A DNA stretch of 64,000 nucleotides from a phage, in sequence record PZ445524.1. One strand, given 5' to 3'. This document shows positions 4,485-45,014 of this stretch, piece by piece. The position numbers were made by a program, and so were the translations under genes. The notes under the pieces are model-generated. The model ran no database searches. It was not told where the DNA came from and saw nothing but the letters and a program-made list of their open reading frames with translations. Every line of letters starts with the position of its first letter. The stretch's first letter is position 1.

Positions 4485-6072
<1,588 letters not shown>

Positions 6073-9205: not shown

Positions 9206-9237
9206 TTGTTAGTGACTCGTCCGTGAGTCAAATTATA

Positions 9238-12036: not shown

Positions 12037-12055
12037 ATATCCTCACAATTAATAA

Positions 12056-13932
12056 TTACACCGCCATCTTTCCTTTAATAGGAGGGTGTGATACATAGTT
12101 GTTAAGAACGAAATCTTTAGGCCTAAGTTTAAGAACATATTTTAATTGTTCTTTAGTAGAAAGATATCGGAATTTATAAGGTAGACCACTTATTACCAGC
12201 TCACAAAGCTCTTTAGGTTCACGCCTCAAAATTTCTTTACATTGTTCTACGTGATTCATATAGATATGAGTATTACCACCAGAAAATATCAAATCCCCTG
12301 GAATAAGATTACACATCTTAGCTACAATATGAACTAACGTAGCATATGATGCAATATTAAACGGTAGCATTATGTTCAGATAAGGTCGTTAATCTTACCC
12401 CGGAATTATATCCAGCTGCATGTCACCATGCAGAGCAGACTATATCTCCAACTTGTTAAAGCAAGTTGTCTATCGTTTCGAGTCACTTGACCCTACTCCC
12501 CAAAGGGATAGTCGTTAGGCATTTATGTAGAACCAATTCCATTTATCAGATTTTACACGATAAGTAACTAATCCAGACGAAATTTTAAAATGTCTAGCTG
12601 CATCTGCTGCACATTCAAAAATAACCCCATCACATGAAATCTTTTTAATATTACTAGGCTTTTTACCTTTCATCTTTTCTGATATTTTAGATTTAGTTAT
12701 GTCTGAATGCTTATGATTAAAGAATGAATTATTTTCACCTGAACGATTTCTGCATTTACTACAAGTATAAGCAGAAGTTTGTATGCGAACACCGCACTTA
12801 CAAAACTTATGGGTTTCTGGATTCCAACGCCCATTTTTACTTCCGGGTTTACTGTAAAGAGCTTTCCGACCATCAGGTCCAAGTTTAAGCATCTTAGCTT
12901 TAACAGTTTTAGAACGTTTCTTAATAATTTCTTCTTTTAATGGATGCGTAGAACATGTATCACCAAACGTTGCATCAGCAATATTGTATCCATTAATTTT
13001 AGAATTAAGCTCTTTAATCCAAAAATTTTCTCGTTCAATAATCAAATCTTTCTCATATGGAATTTCTTCCAAAATAGAACATTCAAACACATTACCGTGT
13101 TTGTTAAAAGACCTCTGAAGTTTTATAGAAGAATGGCATCCTTTTTCTAAATCTTTAAAATGCCTCTTCCATCTCTTTTCAAAATCTTTAGCACTTCCTA
13201 CATATACTTTATTGTTTAAAGTATTTTTAATCTGATAAATTCCGCTTTTCATAAATACCTCTTTGAATATAGAAGTATTTATTAAAGGGCAGTCCTACAA
13301 TTTAGCACGGGATTGTCTACTAGAGAGTTTCCCCGTTTAGATAGATTACAAGTATAAGTCACCTTATACTCAGGCCTCAATTAACCCAAGAAAACATCTA
13401 CCGAACGTTGATACCACTGCAAATCCAAATAGCCATTACGAACATTAAATTGATAAAACATATGACAAGGCGGTAATGCCATCTGCTTGAGTTCAGCTGG
13501 ATTCCATGCTGAAACAATTTGACGCCTATCATTTGGCAGTTTTTTAATACGATCAATAACTTCTATAATTTGGTCTACACCACCAAAATCACGCCACTGT
13601 TTTCCATAAATTGGACCAAGTTCACCGCTATGGTATCCTAAATCTTTTGCTTGATTTTCGTAATTTTCATCCCAAACTGTTTTGCCTTGGATTAACGAAT
13701 CATGCTGAATTAATCGTAAATCATTGACATTTGTGCTTCCTGATAAAAACCATATTAACTCGGCAATGCAAGCTTTCCAGGCGAGCTTTTTAGTTGTTAC
13801 TGCAGGAAAACCTTTGGTTAAATCCCAACGCAATTTAGTACCGAACAAAGCAATTGTTCCTGTGCCTGTTCGGTCATCGGTTTCATAACCATTTTCAAAA
13901 ATGTCTTTAATTAAATCTTGGTATTGTTTCAT
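12056..13932 (-). CDS. td: thymidylate synthase, interrupted by a group I intron (exon1 13384..13932, exon2 12056..12367)
   Basis: Exon 1 ends YQRSVDVFLG, exon 2 begins LPFNIASY; spliced product 286 aa. Confidence 0.9.
12368..13383 (-). mobile_element. group I intron in td (1016 nt) carrying I-TevI
   Basis: Exon 1 ends in U (GGU), intron ends AUG with terminal G before CUA CCG; length equals the known T4 td intron. Confidence 0.85.
12515..13252 (-). CDS. intron-encoded GIY-YIG homing endonuclease I-TevI
   Basis: 245 aa; N-terminal GIYQIKNTLNNKVYVGSAKDFEKRWKRH, zinc finger CKCGVRIQTSAYTCSKC, C-terminal DNA-binding region. Confidence 0.9.
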   Translation of the reverse strand: MKSGIYQIKNTLNNKVYVGSAKDFEKRWKRHFKDLEKGCHSSIKLQRSFNKHGNVFECSILEEIPYEKDLIIERENFWIKELNSKINGYNIADATFGDTCSTHPLKEEIIKKRSKTVKAKMLKLGPDGRKALYSKPGSKNGRWNPETHKFCKCGVRIQTSAYTCSKCRNRSGENNSFFNHKHSDITKSKISEKMKGKKPSNIKKISCDGVIFECAADAARHFKISSGLVTYRVKSDKWNWFYINA

Positions 13933-13977
13933 TTAGTACCTTATATAAATTATAATACATTTTATGAAGCTAAATAA

Positions 13978-14337
13978 TCAATACGGTTTAGCATCAAATT
14001 TTCTCTCAATTTCAGGTGTGAAATATAATTCTTTACCACGTTTGGAAAAGCGACCAATAATATGATAATTATTCTCATCAAACGTGATATTACCAATATC
14101 CATAGCTTTCAACCAAATATCGATATTTCTATCCAGCTTTATGTCAAAATTCCAATACGGAGAACTATTACCGAAAATACTGCAAGCGGATTCAGTGAAA
14201 CAACTGCTATAAATCTTGTCTTTAGGAACTACTAATTGATAGACACCTTTAATAAACTGAGGACCTTGCCATTTTGGCTGTTTCGCGTCTTTTTCTAATA
14301 GAATAGGGTAATAATTAAAATTCATATTTTCAGCCAC
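13978..14337 (-). CDS. hypothetical protein (116-119 aa) between frd and td
   Basis: 360-nt ORF in AT-rich DNA; GTG at 14335-14337 or ATG at 14323-14325; no strong SD; no recognisable motif. Confidence 0.5.
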   Translation of the reverse strand: MAENMNFNYYPILLEKDAKQPKWQGPQFIKGVYQLVVPKDKIYSSCFTESACSIFGNSSPYWNFDIKLDRNIDIWLKAMDIGNITFDENNYHIIGRFSKRGKELYFTPEIERKFDAKPY

Positions 14338-14345
14338 GCGTTATT

Positions 14346-15172
<827 letters not shown>

Positions 15173-15182
15173 ATTATTTTCC

Positions 15183-15426
15183 TTAAACAGACTTTTTCAC
15201 AATTTTCCAATCAGCTTTAAACTGCTCGACGTCAGAATGGTAAATCCAAAATCCTGCGCTTTCTCCGTCTTCATAAAGAGGACATCCATCGCATTCATCT
15301 TCCCATCCCATATCGCGTAAAAGATGTTCAGCTTTTTCAACAAGTTCAGAATCTTTACCGATGATATTAAAATACCATTTACCTCTAACTTCCGAATCTT
15401 TGATGCTCTGACGTTGTAATCTCATT
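15183..15426 (-). CDS. hypothetical protein (80 aa)
   Basis: Start moved to ATG 15424-15426 with GAGGAG SD; the longer ORF-track N-terminus would include the promoter. Confidence 0.5.
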
Positions 15427-15449
15427 TTATTCTCCTCAGTAGTTGATAA

Positions 15450-15483
15450 GGCTATAGTATCATTACCATAGCCTGTTGTAAAC
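15450..15483 (-). promoter_or_regulatory. early promoter
   Basis: - strand GTTTAC ... TACTAT upstream of ORF 15183..15426. Confidence 0.5.
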
Positions 15484-15485
15484 AT

Positions 15486-15713
15486 TTATTTTTGGATTAA
15501 GCCCATATAAAATTTAGCATCTTCAGGATACATGCCATCACAATACTCATTGGTCATAAAACTAATAAGGTCTTCAAGAGGACCTTGGACTTCAATTTGA
15601 ATACTAAAGAATTGGGTGTCTTTAATGTAAGCCATACTCAAAGAAGGATAACGATTGCGGATAACTTCGTAAGTGTATTCAAAATCAACAATATCAATAT
15701 TAACCTTAGCCAT
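15486..15713 (-). CDS. hypothetical protein (75 aa), paralog of 16197..16424
   Basis: [13 protein letters not shown]...NEYCDGM aligns with [13 protein letters not shown]...NEYCDGM; SD GAGGAAA. Confidence 0.55.
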
Positions 15714-15739
15714 TTTATTTTCCTCATGTAGTTGATAGG

Positions 15740-15772
15740 GTAATAGTATCACACTACTACCCTACTGTAAAC
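15740..15772 (-). promoter_or_regulatory. early promoter
   Basis: - strand GTTTAC ... GATACTAT upstream of ORF 15486..15713. Confidence 0.5.
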
Positions 15773-16152
15773 TACTTTTTGAAAGTTTTTCGCAAAAGTT
15801 CAATGATTTCGTCTACATTGTTTTCGTCTACAATGCAGTGAATTTTTGTTACGCCAGAAACCAGGTCTTTGACTTCATCTTTTTCAGAAGTCGGTTCTTT
15901 ATACTCACGAAAACAATGAAATTCGTCTTCGCAAATTTCTAAAAGTCTATCTTTGAGGTAAAAATGCTTTCCATTTGCGCATTCAATGTGTTTTACTGCT
16001 TTATATCCATTAGCGACGGAAACTTCTTTAACTTCAAACCATCCGCCATTATCTCGAATGGCTTTAACTATTGATGAATTAGAACGTGGGCTATAATTAA
16101 TAAATGTATCAATAAGTCTTGGAACAAGTTCATACTTTTTACCGGTATACAT
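15772..16152 (-). CDS. hypothetical protein (126 aa)
   Basis: ATG with GAGGAAA SD; hairpin 16167-16186 upstream. Confidence 0.55.
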   Translation of the reverse strand: MYTGKKYELVPRLIDTFINYSPRSNSSIVKAIRDNGGWFEVKEVSVANGYKAVKHIECANGKHFYLKDRLLEICEDEFHCFREYKEPTSEKDEVKDLVSGVTKIHCIVDENNVDEIIELLRKTFKK

Positions 16153-16196
16153 TACGTTTTCCTCATTTTAATAGGGGCTTGATAGCCCCTTGATAA

Positions 16197-16424
16197 TTAC
16201 TGTTCAATAAATCCTGTGTAAAATTCTACATCTTCAGCATCCATACCGTCGCAGTATTCATTAACCATAAACTGTTTAAGACGATTTAAAGGACCTTCAA
16301 TAACAACTGAAACATTACAATTAGGATCATTTAGTGCGCTTATGATACTAAGTTCAGGATAACGATTACGAATAATTTCTTCAATATATTCAAAATCAAC
16401 AACATCAATATCAATTTTAGCCAT
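16197..16424 (-). CDS. hypothetical protein (75 aa), paralog of 15486..15713
   Basis: ATG with AGAGGAAA SD; own early promoter upstream. Confidence 0.55.
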
Positions 16425-16467
16425 ATTATTTTCCTCTTTAATTATCAGCAGTATTGCCGATAGTTGT

Positions 16468-16497
16468 ATATTACCACAGTATGCTTTGGTTGTAAAC
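16468..16497 (-). promoter_or_regulatory. early promoter
   Basis: - strand GTTTAC ... TAATAT upstream of ORF 16197..16424, just after the gene 32 terminator. Confidence 0.5.
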
Positions 16498-16520
16498 AGT
16501 TTTGTGAAAAATTTTTAAAA

Positions 16521-16547
16521 TAAAAAAAGGGGACCCTAGAGGTCCCC
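16521..16547 (-). terminator. rho-independent terminator after gene 32
   Basis: - strand GGGGACC-UCUAG-GGUCCCC followed by UUUUUUUAUUUU. Confidence 0.8.
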
Positions 16548-16569
16548 AATTAATTAGTAATATAATCTA

Positions 16570-17478
16570 TTAAAGGTCATTCAAAAGGTCATCCAGGTCC
16601 GTGTCATCAGCACTAGATGAACTGCTAGAGCTTGAGCTCATAAAATCATCTTCAGTTTTTGTATTGAAGTCATCAACATTGAATGCATCCAAATCATCAG
16701 CAACTTTATCAGCTTTCTTAGCGGCAGTTGCTGCGGCACCGCCCATCACAGCAGTTCCCATAACTTGACCGAATTTAGTGCTCAGTTCTTCAAACGATTT
16801 GAATTTATCTTTAGAAGTCATTTCAGAAAGGTCAACCATTTGTTCGAACAGTTCTTTCTGGAAAGATTCATCATCAATGTTTGGAATCGCAGATTGATTC
16901 AGGAATTTAGATTCATCGTAGTTACTAAATCCAGAAACCTGTTTAACTTTCAGTACAAAGTTAGCACCTTCCCACGGACAAGTTACATCAACCGGAGTTT
17001 CACCCATTTCAACATCAACTGCAATCATTGCATTGATTTTATCCCAGATTTTCTTACCGAAACGGTATTTAAATACTTTACCTTCATTTTCTGGAGCAGC
17101 TGGGTCTTTTACAACAAGAATATTAGCCCAGTAAGAAGTTTTACGTTTAACAAGACTGTACTCTTTATTGTCAGTGTTGTACAGATCATTTTTACTGATG
17201 TACTGACATACTGGGCAAGAATCGTAATCACCGTGGGTAGATGAACATGTTTCAATATACCATTTACCATTTTTCTTGAAACCGTGATTTACAAGAATTG
17301 CGAATGGTGCTTGTTCATCATTTTTAGACGGAAGAAAACGAATTACTGCTTGACCGTTACCCGCATTGTCGAGTTTCAGTTTCCACTCGCCTTTATCTTC
17401 AGAAGAAAAACCACCTTTATTTCCAGCCAGTTTAGCCATTTGCGCAGCGAGTTCAGCAGTAGATTTACGTTTAAACAT
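16570..17478 (-). CDS. 32: single-stranded DNA-binding protein gp32
   Basis: 302 aa; zinc site [14 protein letters not shown]; acidic Ser/Asp-rich C-terminus; AU-rich leader upstream. Confidence 0.95.
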
Positions 17479-17560
17479 TTTTATTTCCTTTTTAATTTAA
17501 TTAACAGTTGGTGCTATGACGATGTATGACCTCATAGCTGGTCAGTGAGATAATTATAAT
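17479..17560 (-). promoter_or_regulatory. gene 32 mRNA leader / autoregulatory translational operator
   Basis: - strand reads ...UUAAUUAAAUUAAAAAGGAAAUAAAUG; unstructured AU-rich tract adjacent to a structured region. Confidence 0.6.
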
Positions 17561-17562
17561 CT

Positions 17563-17570
17563 ATTTATAA
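17563..17570 (-). promoter_or_regulatory. late-type promoter TATAAATA upstream of gene 32
   Basis: Reverse complement TATAAATA about 85 nt upstream of the gene 32 ATG. Confidence 0.55.
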
Positions 17571-17577
17571 TAAGCAA

Positions 17578-18231
17578 TTAATACTTGCAAGATTTCACAG
17601 TTTCAATAAAAACACTTTTAGCTTTCTGTGAATCAATATTTAAAATTTTTCTATAAGCCTTTAACTTTATAGAATAATTATTCCAGACTAAATTATCAGT
17701 CTGTTCATCATGTTTATCAATTATATTTAAAAACGAATCAAGCAAGATAAACGTCTCAAACGAAATTATGTTCGATTGCAGAAGTTTAAAAATATAACTT
17801 GATTGAACTTTTGGATTATACTCAAAAATTTCTTTAAAAGCAGAAACTTCAACTTTTTTACTAAAATAATAAATGTTGCGAATATCTTCTTCAAACTTAA
17901 ATTTAATTTGCTTTAAGCGTCCGATATATTCACGATAAAACACAAGTGCATCAGCGTCAGAGATGTCACCAATCCAAGCATCTTGGTTAGCAACCAAATT
18001 GCTTATAAAGATTAAAGCAAGTTCCTTTAATTTATATTTTTCTGATAACTTCTGGAAAAAATACTTATCCCTTCGCTTTTGATAAGCGGCATCAGACACC
18101 CGCATGCACCAATTATACTTAATAACATCATACTTTCCATTCATATGCTGTTTTATCATTAAGTATAATTTATAAACTGATTTACCATCAATGTATCTTT
18201 CACCACCAGCAGGCATGCGGAGTTTAATCAT
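17578..18231 (-). CDS. 59: helicase loader gp59
   Basis: 217 aa basic protein directly upstream of gene 32. Confidence 0.85.
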   Translation of the reverse strand: MIKLRMPAGGERYIDGKSVYKLYLMIKQHMNGKYDVIKYNWCMRVSDAAYQKRRDKYFFQKLSEKYKLKELALIFISNLVANQDAWIGDISDADALVFYREYIGRLKQIKFKFEEDIRNIYYFSKKVEVSAFKEIFEYNPKVQSSYIFKLLQSNIISFETFILLDSFLNIIDKHDEQTDNLVWNNYSIKLKAYRKILNIDSQKAKSVFIETVKSCKY

Positions 18232-18566
18232 AGTAGAAAATCTAATGTATTAGTTTTTTCACAGCGAACAACAGAAGGACGTAAAAGATTTTCGTCAATA
18301 GCTTCTGACTGAATTTTTTCAATTATACCCGAAGGAATAAATTTAGCAAATTGAGTTTCAGGAATAGAGTTTTCTTCCAAGAATGCTGTCGTAGCTTCAA
18401 GATAACTCATTCCAAACTCTTCTACCATTTTTTCAATAATAAATCCATTTTCTTGACGATCAAGAAGCTTTGCTATTTCATCCTTTTCTTTCTTGATTGA
18501 GAGTTCTTTTTCTGAAAGACCGGTCTCATCGACCGGACGAATATCATTTAGAGAAAACTGTGTCAT
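18228..18566 (-). CDS. 33: late transcription co-activator gp33
   Basis: 112 aa from ATG 18564-18566; acidic; position 59-33-dsbA. Confidence 0.75.
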   Translation of the reverse strand: MTQFSLNDIRPVDETGLSEKELSIKKEKDEIAKLLDRQENGFIIEKMVEEFGMSYLEATTAFLEENSIPETQFAKFIPSGIIEKIQSEAIDENLLRPSVVRCEKTNTLDFLL

Positions 18567-18813
18567 AAAGTTCAACTACCTCTTCAGTTTCAGCTTCAAA
18601 CACATCACGGTTATCTTTATGATACAAAGCTAATAGACGATTAAACATCTTACCATCAACACCAAGTTCATCTTTAGCACGAATTCGAATATCTTTAATC
18701 AGTTCATTATAACCGGAAATTTTCAGTTTATGATCAGATGCTTCTTTAATAAATTTAGCCAAGTCTTCGCCATGGATAGCTTCATCAAATTCAACCATTT
18801 CTTTTTTAGCCAT
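18544..18813 (-). CDS. dsbA: dsDNA-binding protein DsbA
   Basis: 89 aa; GAGGTG SD; position between 33 and rnh. Confidence 0.7.
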   Translation of the reverse strand: MAKKEMVEFDEAIHGEDLAKFIKEASDHKLKISGYNELIKDIRIRAKDELGVDGKMFNRLLALYHKDNRDVFEAETEEVVELYDTVFSK

Positions 18814-18821
18814 TATTCACC

Positions 18822-19739
18822 TCAAAATTCATTAATGCTATTAGTTAATTTAGAAAGACCCGCTTTTACAAAATATGAATAAATTTTGCCACGCGGTGGT
18901 AATTTATATGAATTATAGTAATTCACAATGTTTGAAGCAATATTATCAGGAATATAATCAAAATCAATTAGAACTAAATTTTCTTTATATCGATTATATT
19001 CAGATTCAGTGAGAAGCACCTTAGCTTGCTCACGGTCATTAGCAATAGCTTCAACGATTGAAGTTTTCATTGAAGGAGTTCGTTCACCTTCAACTCTGGT
19101 AAACCAAAAGTCAGATCGTACTTTAACTGAAGCAACGTTATCCTTTTTGTCGCCTTTAAGGATTTTAGTCATACAGTCAATTTCAGCAGAACCGCTTTTA
19201 ATTTTAACCCATTTCTTGTGCATCGGTGACCATTGCTTAACATTTGGGTATTTGTGAAGTTGAGTAAAGTCACCATCCGACGAAATGATTAAAATCTTAT
19301 GTCCTTCTAAAGAGAACTTTTTAACAAGAACAGCAATGTGGTCATCTGCTTCATACTTATCAATATCCATAACAATGTATGGCATATAAGCTTTCAATTC
19401 ATCTATAACTTTATGGCTGGATTCAAAATAACCTTCCCAGTCCCAAGTAGATTCTTCTCGTGCTTTTCCACGGTTTTTCTTGTAATAATACGCGAAATCA
19501 CGACGCCAGTATCCAGATTTCGCGTTATCAATACACAGTACAATTTTAGTGTATCCAAGCGTTTTTGCTTTTTTGACATTAAACTTAATTGAGTTCAATA
19601 TCAAATGACGAACCATTGATAAATTAATTTTTTCTTTATCTGGGAAGTTTACCAGAGCAGTTGAAAGCGCAATTTGACTAAAGTCAATTAAGCAGATTCC
19701 TTCTTTGTAATCTTCATCCAACATCATTTCTAAATCCAT
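18822..19739 (-). CDS. rnh: RNase H (5'-3' exonuclease / flap endonuclease)
   Basis: 305 aa from ATG 19737-19739 (MDLEMM); FEN-family acidic residues. Confidence 0.9.
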   Translation of the reverse strand: MDLEMMLDEDYKEGICLIDFSQIALSTALVNFPDKEKINLSMVRHLILNSIKFNVKKAKTLGYTKIVLCIDNAKSGYWRRDFAYYYKKNRGKAREESTWDWEGYFESSHKVIDELKAYMPYIVMDIDKYEADDHIAVLVKKFSLEGHKILIISSDGDFTQLHKYPNVKQWSPMHKKWVKIKSGSAEIDCMTKILKGDKKDNVASVKVRSDFWFTRVEGERTPSMKTSIVEAIANDREQAKVLLTESEYNRYKENLVLIDFDYIPDNIASNIVNYYNSYKLPPRGKIYSYFVKAGLSKLTNSINEF

Positions 19740-19764
19740 ATGAACCTCGTTCAATTAGTGAGAT

Positions 19765-19797
19765 TTCTATTATATACCATCCAAATCTTAAAGTAAA
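19765..19797 (-). promoter_or_regulatory. early promoter for rnh, divergent from the gene 34 late promoter
   Basis: - strand GTTTAC ... TATATAAT upstream of the rnh ATG. Confidence 0.5.
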
Positions 19798-19801
19798 CAA
19801 G

Positions 19802-19809
19802 TATAAATA
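19802..19809 (+). promoter_or_regulatory. late promoter TATAAATA for gene 34
   Basis: Exact TATAAATA about 35 nt upstream of the gene 34 ATG. Confidence 0.8.
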
Positions 19810-19843
19810 CTTATTATTGAAAACACAATAGGAGCCCGGGAGA

Positions 19844-22800
19844 ATGGCCGAGATTAAAAGAAAGTTCAGAGCAGAAGATGGTCTGGACGCAGGTGGTGAT
19901 AAAATAATCAACGTAGCTTTAGCTGATCGTACCGTAGGAACTGACGGTGTTAACGTTGATTACTTAATTCAAGAAAACACAGTTCAACAATATGATCCAA
20001 CTCGTGGATATTTAAAAGATTTTGTAATCATTTATGATAACCGCTTTTGGGCTGCTATAAATGATATTCCAAAGCCAGCAGGAGCTTTTAATAGCGGACG
20101 CTGGAGAGCATTACGTACCGATGCTAACTGGATTACGGTTTCATCTGGTTCATATCAATTAAAATCTGGTGAAGCAATTTCGGTTAACACCGCAGCTGGA
20201 AATGACATCACGTTTACTTTACCATCTTCTCCAATTGATGGTGATACTATCGTTCTCCAAGATATTGGAGGAAAACCTGGAGTTAACCAAGTTTTAATTG
20301 TAGCTCCAGTGCAAAGTATTGTAAACTTTAGAGGTGAACAGGTACGTTCAGTACTAATGACTCATCCAAAGTCACAGCTAGTTTTAATTTTTAGTAATCG
20401 TCTGTGGCAAATGTATGTTGCTGATTATAGTAGAGAAGCTATAGTTGTAACACCAGCGAATACTTATCAAGCGCAATCCAACGATTTTATCGTACGTAGA
20501 TTTACTTCTGCTGCACCAATTAATGTTAAACTTCCAAGATTTGCTAATCATGGCGATATTATTAATTTCGTAGATTTAGATAAACTAAATCCGCTTTATC
20601 ATACAATTGTTACTACATACGATGAAACGACTTCAATACAAGAAGTTGGAACTCATTCCATTGAAGGCCGTACAACGATTGACGGTTTCTTGATGTTTGA
20701 TGATAATGAGAAATTGTGGAGATTGTTTGACGGGGATAGTAAAGCGCGTTTACGCATTATAACGACTAATTCTAATATTCGTCCAAATGAAGAAGTTATG
20801 GTATTTGGTGCGAATAACGGAACAGCTCAGACAATTGAACTTCAGCTTCCGACTGATATTTCTGTTGGTGATACTGTTAAAATTTCCATGAATTACATGA
20901 GAAAAGGACAAACAGTTAAAATCAAAGCTGCCGGTGAAGATAAAATTGCTTCTTCAGTTCAATTGCTGCAATTCCCAAAACGTTCAGAGTATCCGCCTGA
21001 AACTAAATGGGTTACAGTCCAAGAATTAGTTTTTAATGGTGAAACTAATTATGTACCAGTTTTAGAGCTTGCTTATATTGAAGATTCTGATGGAAAATAC
21101 TGGGTTGTACAGCAAAACGTTCCAACTGTCGAAAGAGTAGATTCTTTAAATGATTCTACTAGAGCAAGATTAGGCGTAATTGCTTTAGCTACACAAGCTC
21201 AAGCTAACGTCGATTTAGAAAATTCTCCACAAAAAGAATTAGCAATTACTCCAGAAACATTAGCTAACCGTACTGCTACAGAAACTCGTAGAGGTATCGC
21301 AAGAATAGCAACTACTGCTCAAGTGAATCAGAACACCACATTCTCTTTTGCAGATGACCTTATCATTACTCCTAAAAAGCTGAATGAAAGAACTGCTACA
21401 GAAACTCGCAGAGGTGTTGCTGAAATTGCTACGCAGCAAGAAACTAATGCAGGTACTGATGATACTACAATCGTCACTCCTAAAAAGCTTCAAGCTCGTC
21501 AAGGTTCTGAATCATTATCTGGTATTGTAACCTTTGTATCTACTGCAGGTGCTACTCCAGCTTCTAGCCGTGAATTAAATGGTACGAATGTTTATAATAA
21601 AAACACTAATAATTTAGTTGTTTCACCTAAAGCTTTGGATCAGTATAAAGCTACGCCTACTCAACAGGGTGCAGTAATTTTAGCAGTTGAAAGTGAAGTA
21701 ATTGCTGGACAAAGTCAGCAAGGATGGGCAAATGCTGTTGTAACGCCAGAAACGTTACATAAAAAGACATCAACTGATGGAAGAATTGGTTTAATTGAAA
21801 TTGCTACGCAAAGTGAAGTTAATACAGGAACTGATTATACTCGTGCAGTCACTCCTAAAACTTTAAATGGTCGTAAAGCAACTGAAAGTTTAAGTGGTAT
21901 AGCTGAAATTGCTACGCAAGTTGAATTCGACGCAGGCGTCGACGATACTCGTATCTCTACACCATTAAAAATTAAAACTAGATTTAATAGTACTGATCGT
22001 ACTTCTGTTGTTGCTCTATCTGGATTAGTTGAATCAGGAACTCTCTGGGACCATTATACCCTTAATATTCTTGAAGCAAATGAGACACAGCGTGGTACAC
22101 TTCGCGTAGCTACACAAGTTGAAGCTGCTGCAGGAAAATTAGATAATGTTTTAATAACTCCTAAAAAGCTTTTAGGTACTAAATCTACTGAAGCACAGGA
22201 AGGTGTTATTAAAGTTGCAACTCAGTCTGAAACTGTGACTGGAACATCAGCAAATACTGCTGTATCTCCAAAAAATTTAAAGTGGATTGTGCAGAGTGAA
22301 CCTACCTGGGCAGCTACTACTGCGGTAAGAGGTTTTGTTAAAACTTCATCTGGTTCAATTACATTCGTTGGTAATGATACGGTAGGTTCAACACAGCCAT
22401 TAGAATCATATGAGAAAAATAGCTATGCGGTATCACCATATGAATTAAACCGTGTATTAGCAAATTATTTGCCGTTAAAAGCAAAAGCTGCTGATACAAA
22501 TTTATTGGATGGTCTAGATTCATCTCAGTTCATTCGTAGGGATATTGCACAGACGGTTAATGGTTCACTAACCTTAACCCAACAAACGAATCTGAGTGCC
22601 CCTCTTGTATCATCTAGTACTGGTGAATTTGGTGGTTCATTGGCCGCTAACTCAACATTTACTATCCGTAACACAGGAACTATGACGCCCCGTATCGTTT
22701 TCGAAAAAGGTCCTGCATCTGGTGCAAACCCGGCACAGTCAATGAGTATTCGTGTATGGGGTAACCAATTTGGTGGCGGTAGTGATACGACTCGTTCGAC

Positions 22801-23719
22801 AGTGTTTGAAGTTGGCGATGATACATCTTATCACTTTTATTCTCAACGTAATAAAGACGGGAATATAACGTTTAGCATTAATGGTACTGTGATGCCAAAA
22901 AATGTTAACGCTTCAGGCACGTTGAATGCGAATGGCGTAGCAACATTTGGTAGTTCAGTTACAGCCAATGGTGAATTCATTAGCAAGTCTGCAAATGCCT
23001 TTAGAGCAATAAATGGTAATTATGGATTCTTTATCAGGAATGATGGCGGCAGCACATATTTTATGCTTACTGCATCGGGTGATCAGACTGGCGGATTTAA
23101 TGGATTACGTCCATTATCAATTAATAATCAATCTGGACAGGTTATAATTGGTGAAAGCTTAATCATTGCTAAAGGTGCTACTATAAATTCAGGCGGTTTG
23201 ACTGTTGTTAACTCGAGAATTCGTTCTCAGGGTACTAAAACATCTGATTTATACACCCGTGCACCAACATCTGATACTGTAGGATTCTGGTCAATCGATA
23301 TTAATGATTCAGCTACTTATAACCAATTCCCGGGTTATTTTAAAATGGTTGAAAAAACTAATGAAGTGACTGGGCTTCCATACTTAGAACGTGGCGAAGA
23401 AGTTAAATCTCCTGGTACACTGACTCAGTTTGGTAATACACTTGATTCGCTTTACCAAGATTGGATTACTTATCCAACGACGCCAGAAGCGCGTACCACT
23501 CGCTGGACACGTACATGGCAGAAAACCAAAAACTCTTGGTCAAGTTTTGTTCAGGTATTTGACGGAGGTAACCCTCCTCAACCATCTGATATCGGTGCTT
23601 TACCATCTGATAATGCTACAATGGGGAATCTTACTATTCGTGATTTCTTGCGAATTGGTAATGTTCGCATTGTTCCTGACCCAGTGAATAAAACGGTTAA
23701 ATTTGAATGGGTTGAATAA
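19844..23719 (+). CDS. 34: long tail fibre proximal subunit gp34
   Basis: 1291 aa; repeated TPKKL/ATETRRG motifs; late promoter and AGGAG SD upstream. Confidence 0.95.
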   Translation: MAEIKRKFRAEDGLDAGGDKIINVALADRTVGTDGVNVDYLIQENTVQQYDPTRGYLKDFVIIYDNRFWAAINDIPKPAGAFNSGRWRALRTDANWITVSSGSYQLKSGEAISVNTAAGNDITFTLPSSPIDGDTIVLQDIGGKPGVNQVLIVAPVQSIVNFRGEQVRSVLMTHPKSQLVLIFSNRLWQMYVADYSREAIVVTPANTYQAQSNDFIVRRFTSAAPINVKLPRFANHGDIINFVDLDKLNPLYHTIVTTYDETTSIQEVGTHSIEGRTTIDGFLMFDDNEKLWRLFDGDSKARLRIITTNSNIRPNEEVMVFGANNGTAQTIELQLPTDISVGDTVKISMNYMRKGQTVKIKAAGEDKIASSVQLLQFPKRSEYPPETKWVTVQELVFNGETNYVPVLELAYIEDSDGKYWVVQQNVPTVERVDSLNDSTRARLGVIALATQAQANVDLENSPQKELAITPETLANRTATETRRGIARIATTAQVNQNTTFSFADDLIITPKKLNERTATETRRGVAEIATQQETNAGTDDTTIVTPKKLQARQGSESLSGIVTFVSTAGATPASSRELNGTNVYNKNTNNLVVSPKALDQYKATPTQQGAVILAVESEVIAGQSQQGWANAVVTPETLHKKTSTDGRIGLIEIATQSEVNTGTDYTRAVTPKTLNGRKATESLSGIAEIATQVEFDAGVDDTRISTPLKIKTRFNSTDRTSVVALSGLVESGTLWDHYTLNILEANETQRGTLRVATQVEAAAGKLDNVLITPKKLLGTKSTEAQEGVIKVATQSETVTGTSANTAVSPKNLKWIVQSEPTWAATTAVRGFVKTSSGSITFVGNDTVGSTQPLESYEKNSYAVSPYELNRVLANYLPLKAKAADTNLLDGLDSSQFIRRDIAQTVNGSLTLTQQTNLSAPLVSSSTGEFGGSLAANSTFTIRNTGTMTPRIVFEKGPASGANPAQSMSIRVWGNQFGGGSDTTRSTVFEVGDDTSYHFYSQRNKDGNITFSINGTVMPKNVNASGTLNANGVATFGSSVTANGEFISKSANAFRAINGNYGFFIRNDGGSTYFMLTASGDQTGGFNGLRPLSINNQSGQVIIGESLIIAKGATINSGGLTVVNSRIRSQGTKTSDLYTRAPTSDTVGFWSIDINDSATYNQFPGYFKMVEKTNEVTGLPYLERGEEVKSPGTLTQFGNTLDSLYQDWITYPTTPEARTTRWTRTWQKTKNSWSSFVQVFDGGNPPQPSDIGALPSDNATMGNLTIRDFLRIGNVRIVPDPVNKTVKFEWVE

Positions 23720-24843: not shown

Positions 24844-24847
24844 ATTG

Positions 24848-24872
24848 AGGGAGCCTTCGGGTTCCCTTTTTC
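24848..24872 (+). terminator. terminator-like hairpin after gene 35
   Basis: GGGAGCC-UUCG-GGUUCCC (one mismatch) followed by UUUUUCUUU. Confidence 0.55.
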
Positions 24873-24874: not shown

Positions 24875-24882
24875 TATAAATA
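24875..24882 (+). promoter_or_regulatory. late promoter TATAAATA for gene 36
   Basis: Exact TATAAATA between the post-gene-35 hairpin and the gene 36 SD. Confidence 0.75.
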
Positions 24883-24905: not shown

Positions 24906-25565
24906 ATGGCTGATTTAAAAGTAGGTTCAACAACCGGAGGCTCTGTCATTTGGCATCAAGGAAATTTTCCATTGAATCCGGCCGGTGACGATGTACTCTA
25001 TAAATCATTTAAAATATATTCAGAATATAATAAACCACAAGCTGCTGATAACGATTTCGTTTCTAAAGCTAATGGCGGTACTTATCTAAACCGAGTTACC
25101 TTTAACCGGGGTATTCAAGTCCCGGGAGCCGGCAATGGTCTGACCGGGATGTTTGTTGGGCCAGGTGATGGAGCAACTTATGATAATGTTAACCTTGATA
25201 TAATATCTTGGTATGGTATCGGATTTAAATCATCTCAAGGAACAGGACCCAGGACAATTGTTTTTAACGTTCGTGATGGTGAAATTTCGGCCCGTGGTAA
25301 TATAAATTCACAGCGTCAGGTGCGAGCCGAAGCCGCAGCGCCCATTGCCGCAAATGACCTTACTAGAAAGGACTATGTTGATGGAGCAATAAATACTGTT
25401 ACAGCAAATGCGAACTCTAGAGTGTTACGATCTGGCGACACTATGACGGGTAACTTAACCGCACCAAACTTTTTTTCGCAGAATCCTGCATCTCAACCTT
25501 CACATGTTCCACGATTTGACCAAATCGTAATTAAGGATTCTGTTCAAGATTTCGGCTATTATTAA
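24906..25565 (+). CDS. 36: long tail fibre distal connector gp36
   Basis: 219 aa; late promoter TATAAATA upstream. Confidence 0.9.
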   Translation: MADLKVGSTTGGSVIWHQGNFPLNPAGDDVLYKSFKIYSEYNKPQAADNDFVSKANGGTYLNRVTFNRGIQVPGAGNGLTGMFVGPGDGATYDNVNLDIISWYGIGFKSSQGTGPRTIVFNVRDGEISARGNINSQRQVRAEAAAPIAANDLTRKDYVDGAINTVTANANSRVLRSGDTMTGNLTAPNFFSQNPASQPSHVPRFDQIVIKDSVQDFGYY

Positions 25566-25573: not shown

Positions 25574-28500
25574 ATGGCTACTTTAAAACAAATACAATTT
25601 AAAAGAAGCAAAACCGCAGGTGCACGTCCTGCTGCTTCAGTATTAGCCGAAGGTGAATTGGCTATAAACTTAAAAGATAGAACACTTTTTACTAAAGATG
25701 ATTCAGGAAATATCATTGATTTAAGCATTTCCGCTGGCGGTAATATCAGTGGAAATATCACTCAAACTGGTGATTATACACAGACTGGAAAATTTAATTT
25801 AATTGGTCCGCAAATTGTAGCAAGCGGTGGATATATTGAGTTTAATTATCGTACTACTGGAAGTGGGGCTTGGTCCGGTCAACATACTGCGAAAGCTCCA
25901 ATTTTTGTAGATTTAAGCTCAGCTACTTCCACATCTGAATATAATCCTATAATTAAACAGCGCTTTAAAGATGGAACTTTTTCTGTTGGTACGTTAGTAA
26001 ATGAAGGAAGTTTTAAGATTCATTATATCAATGAAACTGGGGATTCGAAATATTGGACTTTTAATCGTAATGGTAATTTCCAAGTTGTCACGGGCGATTT
26101 ATTTGTCAGCAACGGTAATATTTCCGCTTCAGGCAATATTAACTCGGCAACTGGATTTGTTTCTGCACCGCAGATTAATACAAAAACCATAGTTTTTGAT
26201 ACAAAAGCATTCGGACAATACGATTCGCAGTCATTAGTTCAATATGTTTATCCTGGAACCGGTGAAACAAACGGAATCAATTACCTTCGTAAAGTTCGAG
26301 CTAAATCAGGCGGAACCATTTACCATGAAATCGCTTCTGCGCAGACCGGTAAGAATGATGAAATTTCTTGGTGGACCGGAAATACACTTACTACTAAATT
26401 AATGGGTCTTCGTAATGATGGCGCAATGGTATTACGTCGTTCACTTGCTATTGGCACAATTACCACCGATGAAAATACTAACAACTATGGTTCTCCTACT
26501 CCAATGGGAGAAAGATATATTGCTTTGGGCGATGCTGCCACTGGTTTAAAATACATTAAGCAGGGTGTTTATGATTTAGTAGGTAATTGGAATTCTGTTG
26601 CTTCTATTACTCCTGATAGTTTCCGTAGTACTCGTAAAGCATTATTTGGACGTTCCGAGGACCAAGGCGGAACGTGGATTATGCCTGGAACGAACGCTGC
26701 TCTCTTGTCTGTTCAAACCCAGGCAGATGTGAATAACGCAGGTGATGGTCAAACCCACATTGGATATAATTCTGGCGGTAAAATGTCCCACTATTTCCGC
26801 GGTAAAGGCCAAACTAATATTAATACTCAAGAAGGCATGGAAGTTAACCCTGGTATTTTGAAATTGGTAACTGGCTCTAATAACGTACAGTTTTATGCCG
26901 ACGGAACAGTATCTTCAATACAAAGAATTAAATTTGATAACGGATTAGTTCTTACTGGTGCTAGACCCGACGGTATTCAACTTGACGCTCCTACAACAAC
27001 AGATGGCACTAAAACTATATTGTGGGCCGGCGGTACTCGCCCAGGTCAGAATAAAAGTTATCTATCTATCAAAGCATGGGGTAATGCCTTTAATGCATCT
27101 GGCGATCGTGCTCGTGAAACGGTTTTTGAGGTAGGTGATGGACAAGGTTACCATTTTTATTCTCAACGAGTTGCTCCCGGATCAGGTTCTACCGTCGGAC
27201 CTATTCAATTTCGAGTTAATGGTGGTTTATTAACTGCAGGTAGTATTGTTGCTTCTGGTTCTATTACAACTGAATCTTCTTTGAGTGTTAATAATGGCAT
27301 GTCAGTAATCGGTGAATTAAAGGTTGGTGGTACCGCAGATAACTTCCGTATTTGGAACGCTAAATACGGCGCTATTTTCCGTCGTTCAGAAGATTCCTTG
27401 TATATAATTCCTACAGCCATTAACCAAGGCGAAAGCGGTGGAATAAGCGATATAAGACCGTTCAGTATTAACCTTGGCACTGGCTCTGTTGCAATGGGTA
27501 ACCATACTCAAGCGGGTAAAAACCTTTTCACGGTTGATAACGTTTCTAAATTAGTACAAACTGATGTTCGTTTCCGTGTTAACATGGATTCCGACGGTAT
27601 TGTTTTGAATGCTTCTTCTCAAGCAGCGTCTAACTTTATCCAAGGACGTAAAGCAGATGCTCCGAAATGGTATCTCGGTATTGGCGACGGTGGTAACGTT
27701 GTTCGTTTACATAACTATACCTATTCCCACGGTATTGCATTAAACTCTGATACTGTAGATATTACTAAGCCTCTTAAAATTAATAATATTCGAATTGGTA
27801 CAGATGGCAACATCACAGGTGGTACTGATAATTTTGCCAATTTAAATACAACGTTAAACAATAAAGTCAATGTTGGTGGTTGGTCAGGCGGAGCTACAAC
27901 TGGGTGGTATAAGTTTGCGACAGTTAATATTCCTCAATCTACTGGAACAGTATCATTTAAAATATATGGTGGTTCAGGATTTAATTTTAAAAGTTATGGG
28001 CAAGCTTCTGTCGCAGAAATAATTCTTAGAACTGGAAATAATAATCCTAAAGGACTTAACGCTACATTATGGAACAGAACTTCTGAAGCATTTTCACAAA
28101 TTGCTACAGTTAACACAAGCAATGATACATATGACGTTTATGTTTATGTGGGAGGATATTCAAATGCTTTAGTCGTCGAATATTCATGTACCAGTAATAG
28201 TACAGTAACTGTGGTTGGTGTTAATGGAGGAATTCAACCTATTGTTGAAACACTTCCAGAAGGTCATGTAGTAGGTAAAACTGTAAAATTATTGAATAAC
28301 ATTGATGGAATGTTTTCAGCTGGTGAATCTGATATTATTACTCGCGGTGAATTTGTTACCAATAACCAAAAAGGTTTACGCATTAAATCTAGAGGCAACG
28401 ATATTGATTCTAATGCTGTTATTATTCGAAATGATGGTGGAAGTTTTTATATTCTAGCTACAGATAAGAATACATCATCAAATCCTGATGCTGCATCAGG

Positions 28501-29467
28501 TAATTGGAATAATTTAAGACCTTTCTCCATTAATATGGCTGATGGTCGCGTTGGTATGAACCATGGTCTAAATATTACCGGCGGTGGCTTGAATGTTACT
28601 GGTGGCTTGAATGTTACTAGTGGTAATACTAGTTTAGGTAATATCTCGTCTCGTGTAGTAGCAGGTTGGCGAGGAGCGTCTGGTTGGGCTGATAACTCGG
28701 ATACAATGAAATCTAAAATCACCTTTATGGCAGACCATGGGGATTTATCTAATTCAGGCAGTTATTATCCTATTGTAGGTGCATACAGCAACTATGGTTC
28801 AGCGGGTTATCGTCAAACCTTTGAATTTGGATGGGTCGGCTCTGGTACCACCGCTGGATGGCGAGAAGGTATTATTCGTATTCGCGGAGATAGTTCTAGC
28901 GGCCAGCAAGCAAGATGGCGATTTACAATGGATGGTATTTTAGATTGCCCGGGTAAAGTACAGATGCCACAAACAAGTGCATTTGGTGTCAATACAACAA
29001 ACGCACTTGGTGGAAACAGTATAACATTTGGTGATAGCGATACTGGTATTAAGCAAAATGGCGATGGATTATTAGACATATATGCGAACAACGTACAAGT
29101 ATTCCGTTTCCAAAACGGTGATTTGTACTCATACAAAAATATAAATGCTCCAAACGTTTATATTCGTTCTGATATTCGTTTAAAATCCAACTTTAAGCCT
29201 ATCGAAAATGCACTTGATAAAGTTGAAAAACTTAACGGTGTCATTTACGATAAAGCTGAATACATCGGTGGAGAGGCAATTGAAACTGAAGCAGGTATTG
29301 TGGCTCAAACGTTACAAGACGTTTTACCAGAAGCTGTCCGTGAAACAGAAGATAGCAAGGGTAATAAAATACTCACTGTTTCTTCTCAAGCCCAGATTGC
29401 TCTTCTAGTTGAAGCTGTGAAAACACTTTCTTCTCGTGTAAAAGAACTTGAATCTAAACTTATGTAA
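25574..29467 (+). CDS. 37: long tail fibre distal subunit gp37 with C-terminal S74-like intramolecular chaperone domain
   Basis: 1297 aa; N-terminus MATLKQIQFKRSK; last ~100 aa SDIRLK...GIVAQTLQDVLPEAV match the endosialidase-chaperone pattern. Confidence 0.9.
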   Translation: MATLKQIQFKRSKTAGARPAASVLAEGELAINLKDRTLFTKDDSGNIIDLSISAGGNISGNITQTGDYTQTGKFNLIGPQIVASGGYIEFNYRTTGSGAWSGQHTAKAPIFVDLSSATSTSEYNPIIKQRFKDGTFSVGTLVNEGSFKIHYINETGDSKYWTFNRNGNFQVVTGDLFVSNGNISASGNINSATGFVSAPQINTKTIVFDTKAFGQYDSQSLVQYVYPGTGETNGINYLRKVRAKSGGTIYHEIASAQTGKNDEISWWTGNTLTTKLMGLRNDGAMVLRRSLAIGTITTDENTNNYGSPTPMGERYIALGDAATGLKYIKQGVYDLVGNWNSVASITPDSFRSTRKALFGRSEDQGGTWIMPGTNAALLSVQTQADVNNAGDGQTHIGYNSGGKMSHYFRGKGQTNINTQEGMEVNPGILKLVTGSNNVQFYADGTVSSIQRIKFDNGLVLTGARPDGIQLDAPTTTDGTKTILWAGGTRPGQNKSYLSIKAWGNAFNASGDRARETVFEVGDGQGYHFYSQRVAPGSGSTVGPIQFRVNGGLLTAGSIVASGSITTESSLSVNNGMSVIGELKVGGTADNFRIWNAKYGAIFRRSEDSLYIIPTAINQGESGGISDIRPFSINLGTGSVAMGNHTQAGKNLFTVDNVSKLVQTDVRFRVNMDSDGIVLNASSQAASNFIQGRKADAPKWYLGIGDGGNVVRLHNYTYSHGIALNSDTVDITKPLKINNIRIGTDGNITGGTDNFANLNTTLNNKVNVGGWSGGATTGWYKFATVNIPQSTGTVSFKIYGGSGFNFKSYGQASVAEIILRTGNNNPKGLNATLWNRTSEAFSQIATVNTSNDTYDVYVYVGGYSNALVVEYSCTSNSTVTVVGVNGGIQPIVETLPEGHVVGKTVKLLNNIDGMFSAGESDIITRGEFVTNNQKGLRIKSRGNDIDSNAVIIRNDGGSFYILATDKNTSSNPDAASGNWNNLRPFSINMADGRVGMNHGLNITGGGLNVTGGLNVTSGNTSLGNISSRVVAGWRGASGWADNSDTMKSKITFMADHGDLSNSGSYYPIVGAYSNYGSAGYRQTFEFGWVGSGTTAGWREGIIRIRGDSSSGQQARWRFTMDGILDCPGKVQMPQTSAFGVNTTNALGGNSITFGDSDTGIKQNGDGLLDIYANNVQVFRFQNGDLYSYKNINAPNVYIRSDIRLKSNFKPIENALDKVEKLNGVIYDKAEYIGGEAIETEAGIVAQTLQDVLPEAVRETEDSKGNKILTVSSQAQIALLVEAVKTLSSRVKELESKLM

Positions 29468-29469
29468 AA

Positions 29470-29487
29470 GAGGGCTTCGGCCCTCTA
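29470..29487 (+). other. UUCG-tetraloop hairpin between genes 37 and 38
   Basis: AGAGGGC-UUCG-GCCCUCU directly after the gene 37 stop, 10 nt before the gene 38 SD. Confidence 0.6.
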
Positions 29488-29497
29488 AGGATTTTTA

Positions 29498-30283
29498 ATG
29501 GCAATTGTAGGTGTTCCTGGCTGGATTGGTGAATCTGCCGTGAATGAAACTGGACAACGTTGGATGGATGCTGCGATGAAAGCTGTTCGTGTTTCAGTTC
29601 CCGGCTGGATGAGCTCAATGGCTGGGCAATCTAAAGAAGTATATTATAGCGTTGGTGCTAGTAATTCTTATAATAAAGACACACTAATAAATTGGATAAA
29701 AGCCCAAGGTAGTACTCCTGTTGTTATTACAATTACAGGAAATATTGTTTCTCAATCTACAGGTGTTCCATGCTTAGATTTTCCTAGCTCATTAACTAAT
29801 GCATACGTGACACTTAATATCAATTCAGGCGTGTATGTTTGGGGTCGCGGCGGTAATGGTGGAAATAACTCTGCTGGTGGAGCAGGAGGAACTGCAATAA
29901 ATAACGGAATTGGAACTAGATTACGTATTAACAACAATGGTGTTATCGCAGGCGGTGGCGGCGGTGGCGGTGGTGGGTATTATTCTCCTATGTCACAAAT
30001 GAAATTAACCTTTGGCGGTGGCGGCGGTCGTCCGTTTGGTGCTGCTGGTGGATCTGCCAACATGCAATCAGGCGCAACTGCTGGTACTATTTCCGCGCCA
30101 GGTAAAGGGTCTGTCAACGGTGTCTATAATGGCGGAAACGGCGGTGATGCTGGTGCCGCAGGTGGTAAATGTAATATTCGTGGTCAAGGATCAGAATATA
30201 ACGGCGGTGCTGCGGGTAAAGCTGTTACTGGTAATGCTCCAACTTGGACTAAAGTTGGTACAATATACGGTTCAAGAGTATAA
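29498..30283 (+). CDS. 38: receptor-recognising adhesin gp38 (T2-type, glycine-rich)
   Basis: 261 aa; poly-Gly tracts (GGGGGGGGGYY, FGGGGGRPFGAAGG) separating short variable segments. Confidence 0.85.
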   Translation: MAIVGVPGWIGESAVNETGQRWMDAAMKAVRVSVPGWMSSMAGQSKEVYYSVGASNSYNKDTLINWIKAQGSTPVVITITGNIVSQSTGVPCLDFPSSLTNAYVTLNINSGVYVWGRGGNGGNNSAGGAGGTAINNGIGTRLRINNNGVIAGGGGGGGGGYYSPMSQMKLTFGGGGGRPFGAAGGSANMQSGATAGTISAPGKGSVNGVYNGGNGGDAGAAGGKCNIRGQGSEYNGGAAGKAVTGNAPTWTKVGTIYGSRV

Positions 30284-30313
30284 TTTGAATAAATATCCTT
30301 AAAAGGAGGGTCT

Positions 30314-42054: not shown

Positions 42055-42086
42055 TAATTATACCACATCCTTGTGGTAAAGTAAAC
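42055..42086 (-). promoter_or_regulatory. early promoter upstream of ORF 41828..42031
   Basis: - strand GTTTAC overlapping the gene 60 stop, then a -10-like element. Confidence 0.45.
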
Positions 42087-42618
42087 TACTGGCTCATCCA
42101 TTCTTTACGAAGGTCAGCATTATCTCCCATGAGCATTTCAAAAAGCTCTTTCCAGTTCTCAGGAAGTTTAACAACATCATATACTGGATTTTGAATCATT
42201 TCACGATATTCAGATTTTTCCAAAGAGCCAAGTCCTTTAATATAACGGATGCTATGTTTAGGTAAAGCATCTTTAGCACTCTCATATTCAGCGACTGTAT
42301 AAAACCATTCTTGTTTTTTACCGACCTGAGCGATGATTACAGGAGTTTTGACAAAGCGAATTCTTCCTTGTTCAAACAGTTCTGGCCAATTACTAAAAAA
42401 TCCGAGCAAAGAAGGATAAATAGAACCTAATCCAATAATCTCTTAATTATGAGGTATTTCTATAGATAGCCCGAAGGCTATCCATCGTGATCTGCGTCTG
42501 TCATAATAGCGACATTCGCATAGTTCATTGAAGAGGATTTAATAGAACGACGAACATTGTTCTGCAATTTATATTTTTTCATATCAACGCTAGAAGAATC
42601 AATTTTTACAAATTTCAT
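42086..42618 (-). CDS. 60: DNA topoisomerase II small subunit gp60, with 50-nt translational bypass (codons 1-46 at 42481..42618, codons 47-160 at 42086..42430)
   Basis: ATG 42616-42618 (MKFVKIDSS); codon 46 GGA then UAG; landing GGA 42431-42433; resumes UUA GGU (LGSIYPS...). Confidence 0.9.
42431..42483 (-). other. gene 60 translational bypass element (take-off GGA, UAG stop, stem-loop, landing GGA)
   Basis: - strand reads GGA UAGCCUUCGGGCUAUC...UUAUU GGA; UUCG tetraloop hairpin directly 3' of the take-off codon. Confidence 0.85.
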
Positions 42619-44945: not shown

Positions 44946-45014
44946 CACTTATCCTCGTTTGGTTTCGGGAATATTATACTCCAATAATCATAAAGCTAAA
45001 GGCCCGAAGGCCTT

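Follow-up and report, generated by a model that had tools for sequence, protein, structure and literature searches.

What kind of receptor-binding tip do genes 37 and 38 of the phage in sequence record PZ445524.1 build, and which bacterial surface protein does it recognise? The two genes occupy positions 25574-30283, on the + strand, of the 64,000-nucleotide (nt) stretch of this record that we analysed (hereafter the window). An original prediction, made from the letters alone, had described them as a T2-type host-recognition module made of a gp37 with a self-cleaving C-terminal chaperone and a glycine-rich gp38 adhesin. Our analysis indicates that the locus is very probably the distal long-tail-fibre tip module of a Tequatrovirus, constructed on the plan of T2 and of Salmonella phage S16, with Tsx as its most likely receptor; for the architecture of the tip and its mechanism there is little room for doubt. 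Gene structure, protein families, catalytic residues, tryptophan prongs, allele relationships and a mosaic map were all computed here, and they divide the two proteins, in amino acids (aa), into the following parts.

25574-29167, + strand: predicted mature distal half-fibre part of gp37 (aa 1-1198), with the C-terminal sequence ...APNVYIR
29168-29467 (stop codon included), + strand: C-terminal intramolecular chaperone (IMC) of gp37, Peptidase_S74, aa 1199-1297
29498-29632, + strand: N-terminal attachment domain of gp38 (aa 1-45; Gp38_N), with the Trp prongs W9, W22 and W37
29633-29848, + strand: linker and beginning of the central beta-helix of gp38 (aa 46-117), with approximate borders drawn from Pfam and the alignment to PDB 6F45 chain D
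29849-30283 (stop codon included), + strand: receptor-specificity domain of gp38 (aa 118-261), glycine-rich motifs (GRM) alternating with hypervariable loops (HVS)

The chaperone segment of the 1297-aa gp37 begins exactly where it had been placed, with the codon for S1199 starting at nt 29168 (29153-29200 translates to NVYIR-SDIRLKSNFKP), and Peptidase_S74 (PF13884) matches aa 1199-1256 over its full model (1-58/58, 56.6 bits for a cutoff of 22, E = 3e-15). The domain forms the last 99 aa of gp37, that is, its extreme C-terminus, 3' of the two other regions detected with Pfam, which are Gp34_trimer-like (aa 508-632) and gp37_trimer (aa 675-749); gp37 would thus be expected to be a trimer. When the last 147 aa were searched against PDB, S16 gp37 (6F45, chain A) was retrieved with E = 4.5e-11, in an alignment that places SDIRLK on SDRRIK and aa 1152-1198 on the S16 tip where gp38 docks. 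The MYRF ICA domain gave a weaker match (E = 1e-3), and matches to influenza HA2 (E = 0.02-0.6) were dismissed as coiled-coil noise. The predicted nucleophile, S1199 (29168-29170), and the predicted general base, K1204 (29183-29185), have the Ser/Lys+5 spacing, align with those of S16 and fit the pair of T5 pb1, in which Ser1264 is activated by Lys1269 for the cut between T1263 and S1264 (PMC4690869). Cleavage of S16 gp37 takes place at DLNVS^SDRRIKK, and for the related fPS phages of Yersinia the site is predicted to be DVYIR^SDGRLKI (PMC7917993). The S74 domain is also found in the gp37 of T2 and T6, and aa 1151-1297 of the window protein are 98-100% identical to T2 gp37; according to Drexler 1986, as cited in PMC3157838, both T2 and T6 gp37 undergo C-terminal cleavage and are then capped by gp38. 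The autocleavage put forward in the original prediction is in line with all of this, and from these relatives we infer that gp37 is also processed in this phage, with a predicted scissile bond NVYIR1198^S1199 whose hydrolysis would release 99 aa and leave a mature chain of 1198 aa. The tip that precedes it (aa ~1145-1198) is conserved and is predicted to dock gp38.

By family and fold, the 261-aa gp38 is a T2-type adhesin and not a T4-type chaperone, as had been proposed. It matches Pfam GP38 (PF05268) from aa 47 to aa 261, on model positions 1-218/218, with 239 bits for a cutoff of 25 and E = 7e-71, and, over aa 1-42, Gp38_N (PF21721) with 64.8 bits (cutoff 25; E = 7e-18), as well as, from end to end, PHROG 2056 with E = 5e-104 ('tail fiber protein; host specificity'). 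With E-values like these and that of Peptidase_S74, chance matches are out of the question. Its aa 8-259 align to the crystal structure of S16 gp38 (6F45 chain D; E = 1e-49), with W9, W22 and W37 on the three Trp prongs of that protein, and a GFP-gp38 fusion entry (9V85) is also matched (E = 1e-33). In S16 the three Trp of gp38 insert into the gp37 tip with a (gp37)3-gp38 stoichiometry, and the protein folds as a polyglycine-II (PGII) sandwich (PMC6851490); by analogy, gp38 of this phage would be located in the virion, with one copy for every three gp37 chains. A direct BLASTP comparison with T4 gp38 (NC_000866) detected no similarity (best E = 19), and a match of gp38 aa 1-87 to PHROG 1121, considered as a link to the T4 protein, was consequently dropped. 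The gp37 of the window bears S74 with no Pfam match to Collar or Phage_fiber, whereas T4 gp37 has Collar and Phage_fiber and no S74. The absent similarity to T4 gp38, together with the S74-bearing gp37, rules out the T4 assembly-chaperone class.

The opposite reading, in which S74 would be a non-cleaving relic and gp38 an assembly factor missing from the virion as in T4, can draw only on the gene name '38' and on some homologue records that still carry the label 'assembly catalyst'. The intact catalytic Ser and Lys, the full-length profile match and the near identity of the C-terminus with that of T2, reported to be cleaved in the work cited above, all oppose a relic, as the lack of similarity to T4 gp38 and the match to the structure of a virion adhesin oppose a mere assembly factor, so that we give this reading a negligible probability.

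Under the preferred T2/S16 plan, three gp37 chains would form a beta-helical fibre whose trimerisation is nucleated by the C-terminal 99 residues, the S74 chaperone. After correct trimer formation, K1204 would activate S1199 for the cut at the R1198-S1199 bond and the chaperone would depart, baring the conserved tip that ends in ...NVYIR. One gp38 monomer would then dock through its N-terminal helical bundle, with W9, W22 and W37 entering three equivalent pockets, while in its C-terminal half the GRMs would build a polyglycine-II sandwich and the hypervariable loops would face the cell surface.

The loops are where the window departs from T2. In tblastn searches, gp38 is 98.5% identical to that of JoYop, 97.7% to those of Pu-Krd-SF3/SF4 and 97.3% to those of a large cluster including FriedrichMiescher (Bas39, MZ501066) and JK38 (MK962755). 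Tsx is the primary receptor of Bas39 (BASEL supplementary table), and JK38 depends on Tsx/Kdo according to RB-TnSeq (bioRxiv 10.64898/2026.04.02.716166). Over the specificity domain (aa 118-261), 143 of the 144 residues are identical in Pu-Krd-SF4, 140 in Bas39, 112 (78%) in T6 and 81 (56%) in T2, whose receptor is FadL (PMC8594841); over the attachment domain (aa 1-45), the identical residues number 44 of 45 in both Pu-Krd-SF4 and Bas39, 30 in T6 and 43 in T2. The comparison of variable segments across relatives, proposed together with Pfam as a check of the original prediction, groups them with T6, and Pfam itself returned the Peptidase_S74 and GP38 families. As judged from these alignments, gp38 combines a T2-subtype attachment domain with a T6-like, Tsx-type loop set, so that the label 'T2-type' holds for the architecture and for the joint between the gp37 tip and the gp38 N-terminus, and fails for the specificity loops. 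The presence of a T2-subtype gp37 tip beside a T2-subtype gp38 N-terminus agrees, at the level of these subtypes, with the 'lock-and-key' rule that pairs the gp37 C-terminal subtype with the gp38 N-terminal subtype (PMC3157838). One HVS set is common to nearly all Tsx-type adhesins (PMC3157838), and receptors can be predicted from gp38 phylogeny (PMC12032242). Since it displays the loops of phages that depend on Tsx, gp38 probably has E. coli Tsx as primary receptor, and not FadL as in T2.

Several points weigh against this overall picture. Cleavage, the 3:1 stoichiometry, the virion location and the receptor are all carried over from relatives and are, for this phage, deduced from sequence. 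We could not recognise in the gp37 sequence the upstream Arg/Asp residues that serve as 'folding sensor' in the K1F/T5 mechanism, neither gp37 nor gp38 has an exact match among ~15 billion proteins, and the roles proposed below for the 37/38 hairpin and for the promoter come from motif matches. Residues 165-166 of the second loop, HVS2, are M-S here, a pair that none of the compared relatives has (F-S in Bas39, T-P in JoYop, M-P in Pu-Krd-SF4, F-P in T6), and single HVS substitutions can switch or broaden the receptor: PST, which recognises OmpA too, differs from T6 at three HVS residues, 167R, 168I and 208I (PMC3157838), and the HVS3 change Q206L switches RB68 from OmpF to OmpW (bioRxiv 10.64898/2026.04.02.716166). 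These last observations favour a reading with the same architecture in which Tsx is not the primary receptor, or not the only one, and OmpA or a porin from a different enterobacterial host could be used, owing to the novel HVS2 pair or to the mosaic gp37 context; M165 and S166 directly adjoin positions 167 and 168, two of the three that separate PST from T6. We consider it unlikely, since M165 and S166 each occur singly in close relatives whose loops are otherwise the same, Tsx dependence has been established independently for Bas39 and JK38, whose gp38 is 97.3% identical, and type-1 OmpA adhesins group in a clade of their own (PMC12032242). A related idea is that M165/S166 and the new gp37 patchwork might shift or broaden the receptor range, for instance to Tsx plus OmpA or to a non-E. 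coli host; taken jointly with the weaker proposal on the UUCG hairpin discussed below, we grant it a slim chance, and the phage would then be a natural single-loop host-range variant. Tsx remains the preferred receptor.

The glycine-rich frame that carries these loops raises the further question of whether its DNA is itself a source of variation, since the original prediction had seen in its GGC/GGT repeats a substrate for slippage or recombination. Poly-Gly tracts do flank short variable segments as described: Gly runs occur at aa 118-131, 152-160, 173-177, 212-223 and 236-237 of gp38, Gly makes up 33% of aa 118-261, and variation among relatives is concentrated between the runs. The following elements of the specificity domain are concerned.

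29948-29977, + strand: GRM AGGGGGGGGG
29978-30013, + strand: HVS2, YYSPMSQMKLTF
30014-30028, + strand: GRM GGGGG (G173-G177)

The nine-Gly run G152-G160 is encoded at 29951-29977. Slippage would make this a contingency locus in which a change of tract length, or deletion of HVS2 through 15-nt repeats, varies the host range, and two features speak in its favour: the 15-mer GGCGGTGGCGGCGGT has exactly two copies, at 29951 and 30014, in frame and 63 nt apart, and Tandem Repeats Finder reports an array of 9 nt x 2.9 copies at 29951-29976. However, the tract consists of mixed GGC/GGT/GGG codons, neither a homopolymer nor a perfect microsatellite, all close relatives have exactly nine Gly with only synonymous differences in the tract, and the GRMs of the solved S16 structure are PGII helices of fixed length (PMC6851490). 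Moreover, deletion through the 15-nt repeats would lose HVS2, and engineered deletions of GRM2-4 and HVS1-3 in T6 never gave viable phage (PMC3157838). Slippage as a generator of host range is therefore very improbable. The recombination half of the proposal fares better and has already been published, recombination at glycine-rich motifs having been proposed by Tetart 1998, as cited in PMC3157838. Between the GRM DNA and divergent alleles, exact identity extends over short stretches only (23 nt for T6, 12 nt for T2), which are compatible with that crossover model without proving it.

Recombination on a broader scale is apparent in the mosaic map of genes 36-38, which combines block-wise protein identity with DNA identity in 100-nt blocks against Tequatrovirus phages and assigns the best alleles as follows.

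Gene 36 centre and 25574-26000: T2-type, 98-100%
26000-26200: PaulHMueller / Solly, 92%
26200-27300: G8 / T2 type, 86-100%
27300-27500: SholemSchwarzbard / TB004, 95%
27500-28800: G8 / IME339 type, mostly 90-100%, with 83% at 28406-28505
28800-29000: Lutter, 94%
29000-29600: gp37 C-terminus (last ~150 aa, IMC included), hairpin and gp38 N-terminus, a block common to Bas39, Pu-Krd-SF4, T2, G8 and IME339, 94-99%
29600-30200: Tsx-type gp38 core, only 41-78% to T2/G8
30200 onward: conserved in all phages compared

At this resolution gene 37 is a fine patchwork in which each patch has a close counterpart in known Tequatrovirus phages, and the modular mosaicism originally claimed turns out to be finer than supposed. 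The centre of gene 36 (25106-25405) has 93-100% nt identity to T2/IME339 and 34-79% to Bas39, JoYop, G8, Pu-Krd-SF4 and T6; the mosaicism accordingly reaches up into gene 36, whose T2/IME339-type centre goes together with the 5' end of gene 37, also T2-type. The conserved blocks on both sides of the gp38 core are the obvious candidate sites for crossovers, and, as read from the map, the locus is a new combination of known alleles. A stretch of 18 nt in gene 37 is duplicated in tandem at 28583-28623 (+ strand; 2.3 copies, 95% match) and encodes GGLNVT-GGLNVT; across the 100-nt blocks that span it (28506-28705), the window does not differ from G8 or IME339 (100% identity).

Expression of the module can be approached through two kinds of signal on the + strand.

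24875-24882, + strand: T4-type late-promoter motif TATAAATA (exact match), upstream of gene 36
29469-29486, + strand: intercistronic hairpin AGAGGGC-UUCG-GCCCUCU, with a 7-bp stem, a UUCG loop and -13.4 kcal/mol

An exact motif scan of the + strand of the fibre region detected TATAAATA only at 19802, before gene 34, and at 24875, before gene 36, and none upstream of gene 38. Judging from the T4 late-promoter consensus, genes 36-37-38 are probably expressed as a late transcript starting from the motif at 24875. The hairpin lies between the stop codon of gene 37 and the Shine-Dalgarno sequence of gene 38 (AAGGA, 29487-29491); in G8 this hairpin bears the annotation of putative terminator, and the T2 entry X04442 lists a stem-loop/potential terminator feature within the matched region. 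It would act as an RNA stabiliser or as a partial terminator. A weaker possibility is that the hairpin lowers downstream expression and keeps gp38 less abundant than gp37, in line with the 3:1 ratio at the tip. A second hairpin of the C(UUCG)G type is found after gene 35 (24847-24868, + strand), directly followed by TATAAATA at 24875. A sigma-70 promoter scan retrieved 33 sites, for 26 +/- 6 in shuffled sequences, without enrichment, and has no relevance for late genes.

According to the open reading frame (ORF) list and Pfam, the module belongs to a + strand succession 34-35-36-37-38-t that is the canonical long-tail-fibre block of T-even phages, with gene 38 between the end of gene 37 and the holin gene.

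19844-23719, + strand: gene 34, ORF of 1291 aa
23728-24843, + strand: gene 35, ORF of 371 aa
24906-25565, + strand: gene 36, 219 aa, distal hinge connector to which gp37 attaches (Pfam Phage_T4_gp36, E = 2e-33)
25574-29467, + strand: gene 37, ORF of 1297 aa
29498-30283, + strand: gene 38, ORF of 261 aa
30314-30970, + strand: holin gene t, 218 aa (Phage_holin_T, E = 7e-117)

The flanks of the locus are 95-97% identical to many Tequatrovirus genomes, such as those of Pu-Krd-SF4 and ADUt, and the 37-38 segment is less conserved, with vB_EcoM_G8 as its best whole-segment DNA match (90% identity over 93% of the query). Two further ORFs rich in Ala, Val, Leu and Pro lie inside gene 38, one of 96 aa in an alternate frame (30012-30302, + strand) and one of 61 aa on the opposite strand (29752-29937, - strand). 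We attributed the antisense and alternate-frame ORFs within genes 37 and 38 (61-107 aa) to frame shadowing by the GC-rich Gly codons and did not retain them as genes.

The original prediction had also invoked a T4-type split of genes 39 and 60 and the presence of introns, and both are corroborated elsewhere in the window. The split topoisomerase region (42086-44948, - strand) shows, in T4-type succession, gene 39 (43395-44948), an HNH ORF (272 aa, 42599-43417, - strand, in the position of mobA, with a weak HNH match) and gene 60, which starts at 42618 (- strand), has GGATAGCCTTCGGGCTATC, identical to the T4 take-off sequence, and contains a bypass element at 42483-42431 with a coding gap of exactly 50 nt (42480-42431) that ends at the landing GGA. 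The introns are supported from the protein side, td and nrdB each being interrupted by an endonuclease ORF. In td (12056-13932, - strand), a 245-aa I-TevI ORF (12515-13252, - strand) separates a 5' part (13381-13932, Pfam positions 1-175) from a 3' part (12056-12370, Pfam positions 176-266). In nrdB (6100-8367, - strand), the 5' part (7690-8367, - strand; positions 9-141 of Ribonuc_red_sm) is followed by a full-length 269-aa HNH ORF (6738-7547), an arrangement that fits an intron with an intact I-TevIII-like gene. Rfam returned no group I intron, either at gathering thresholds over the whole window or at E <= 0.1 over positions 1-20000, a result that is not evidence of absence and that may be due, we assume, to the ORF inserted in each intron. 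Between nrdA and nrdB, an ORF of 267 aa (8402-9205, - strand) encodes a D12-class N6-adenine DNA methyltransferase that is rare: five phage records reach at least 95% protein identity and four lie at 77-80%, and the other 446 matches, which we take to be the canonical T4 Dam, are below 60%.

The general design of this tip is textbook knowledge dating from the 1980s. The processing of T2 gp37, the adhesin role of gp38, its PGII fold, GRM recombination and receptor prediction from gp38 phylogeny have all been published, and the T2/S16-type fibre tip prevails among T-even phages (PMC6851490, PMC3157838). What we add for this phage is a predicted cleavage site, a Tsx-type receptor call and a fine mosaic map. 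Their value for annotation and phage engineering is that a fibre tip becomes callable from its genes, here with predicted cleavage at R1198/S1199 and a likely Tsx-specific gp38. The locus also offers a clean example of 'lock-and-key' pairing, in which a T2-type gp37 tip and a T2-type gp38 N-terminus carry T6-like loops.

Compared with T2 (LC348380; X04442), the window has the same gene order and the same gp37 S74 domain, and aa 1-150, 200-600 and 1000-1297 of its gp37 are 90-100% identical to the T2 protein. However, T2 gp37 has 1341 aa, aa 600-1000 of the window protein are only 22-82% identical to it, and the two phages differ in the gp38 specificity domain and, if our receptor call is right, in the use of FadL. 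The S16 tip shares the Trp prongs, the GRM/HVS layout, the gp37 tip with its IMC and the SD-x-x-x-K motif, but its loops differ, its IMC has 113 aa and is cut after ...DLNVS, compared with 99 aa and a predicted cut after ...NVYIR here, and the gp37 tip of the window is ~16 residues shorter in the alignment. T6 has the Tsx-type HVS set in common, whereas its gp38 N-terminus belongs to another subtype (30/45) and its 994-aa gp37 is very different, with an IMC only 30-42% identical. Bas39 has the same HVS set but a gp37 that is only 10-24% identical, with gaps, over aa 1000-1150, and JK38 likewise has the Tsx-type set in a gp38 that is 97.3% identical overall. The combination of a T2/G8-type distal gp37 (aa 650-1297, 82-100%) with a Tsx-type gp38 (96.6%) already exists in IME339 (vB_EcoM_IME339, MH051915), although aa 50-200 of its gp37 are unrelated (16-32% identity). 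G8 (vB_EcoM_G8, MK373787), the best DNA match over the whole locus, has a different gp38 allele of 268 aa (177/261 identical). T4 resembles the window in the position of the locus, the conserved gp37 N-terminus and the Gp34_trimer-like domain, but its gp37 has its own receptor-binding tip and no S74, and its gp38 is an unrelated assembly chaperone of 183 aa. Finally, K1F endosialidase and T5 pb1 also carry, C-terminally on a trimeric fibre, a Peptidase_S74 domain with a Ser nucleophile and a Lys at +5; their mature domains are unrelated to gp37, in which cleavage is predicted to have the additional effect of making the docking site for a separate adhesin.

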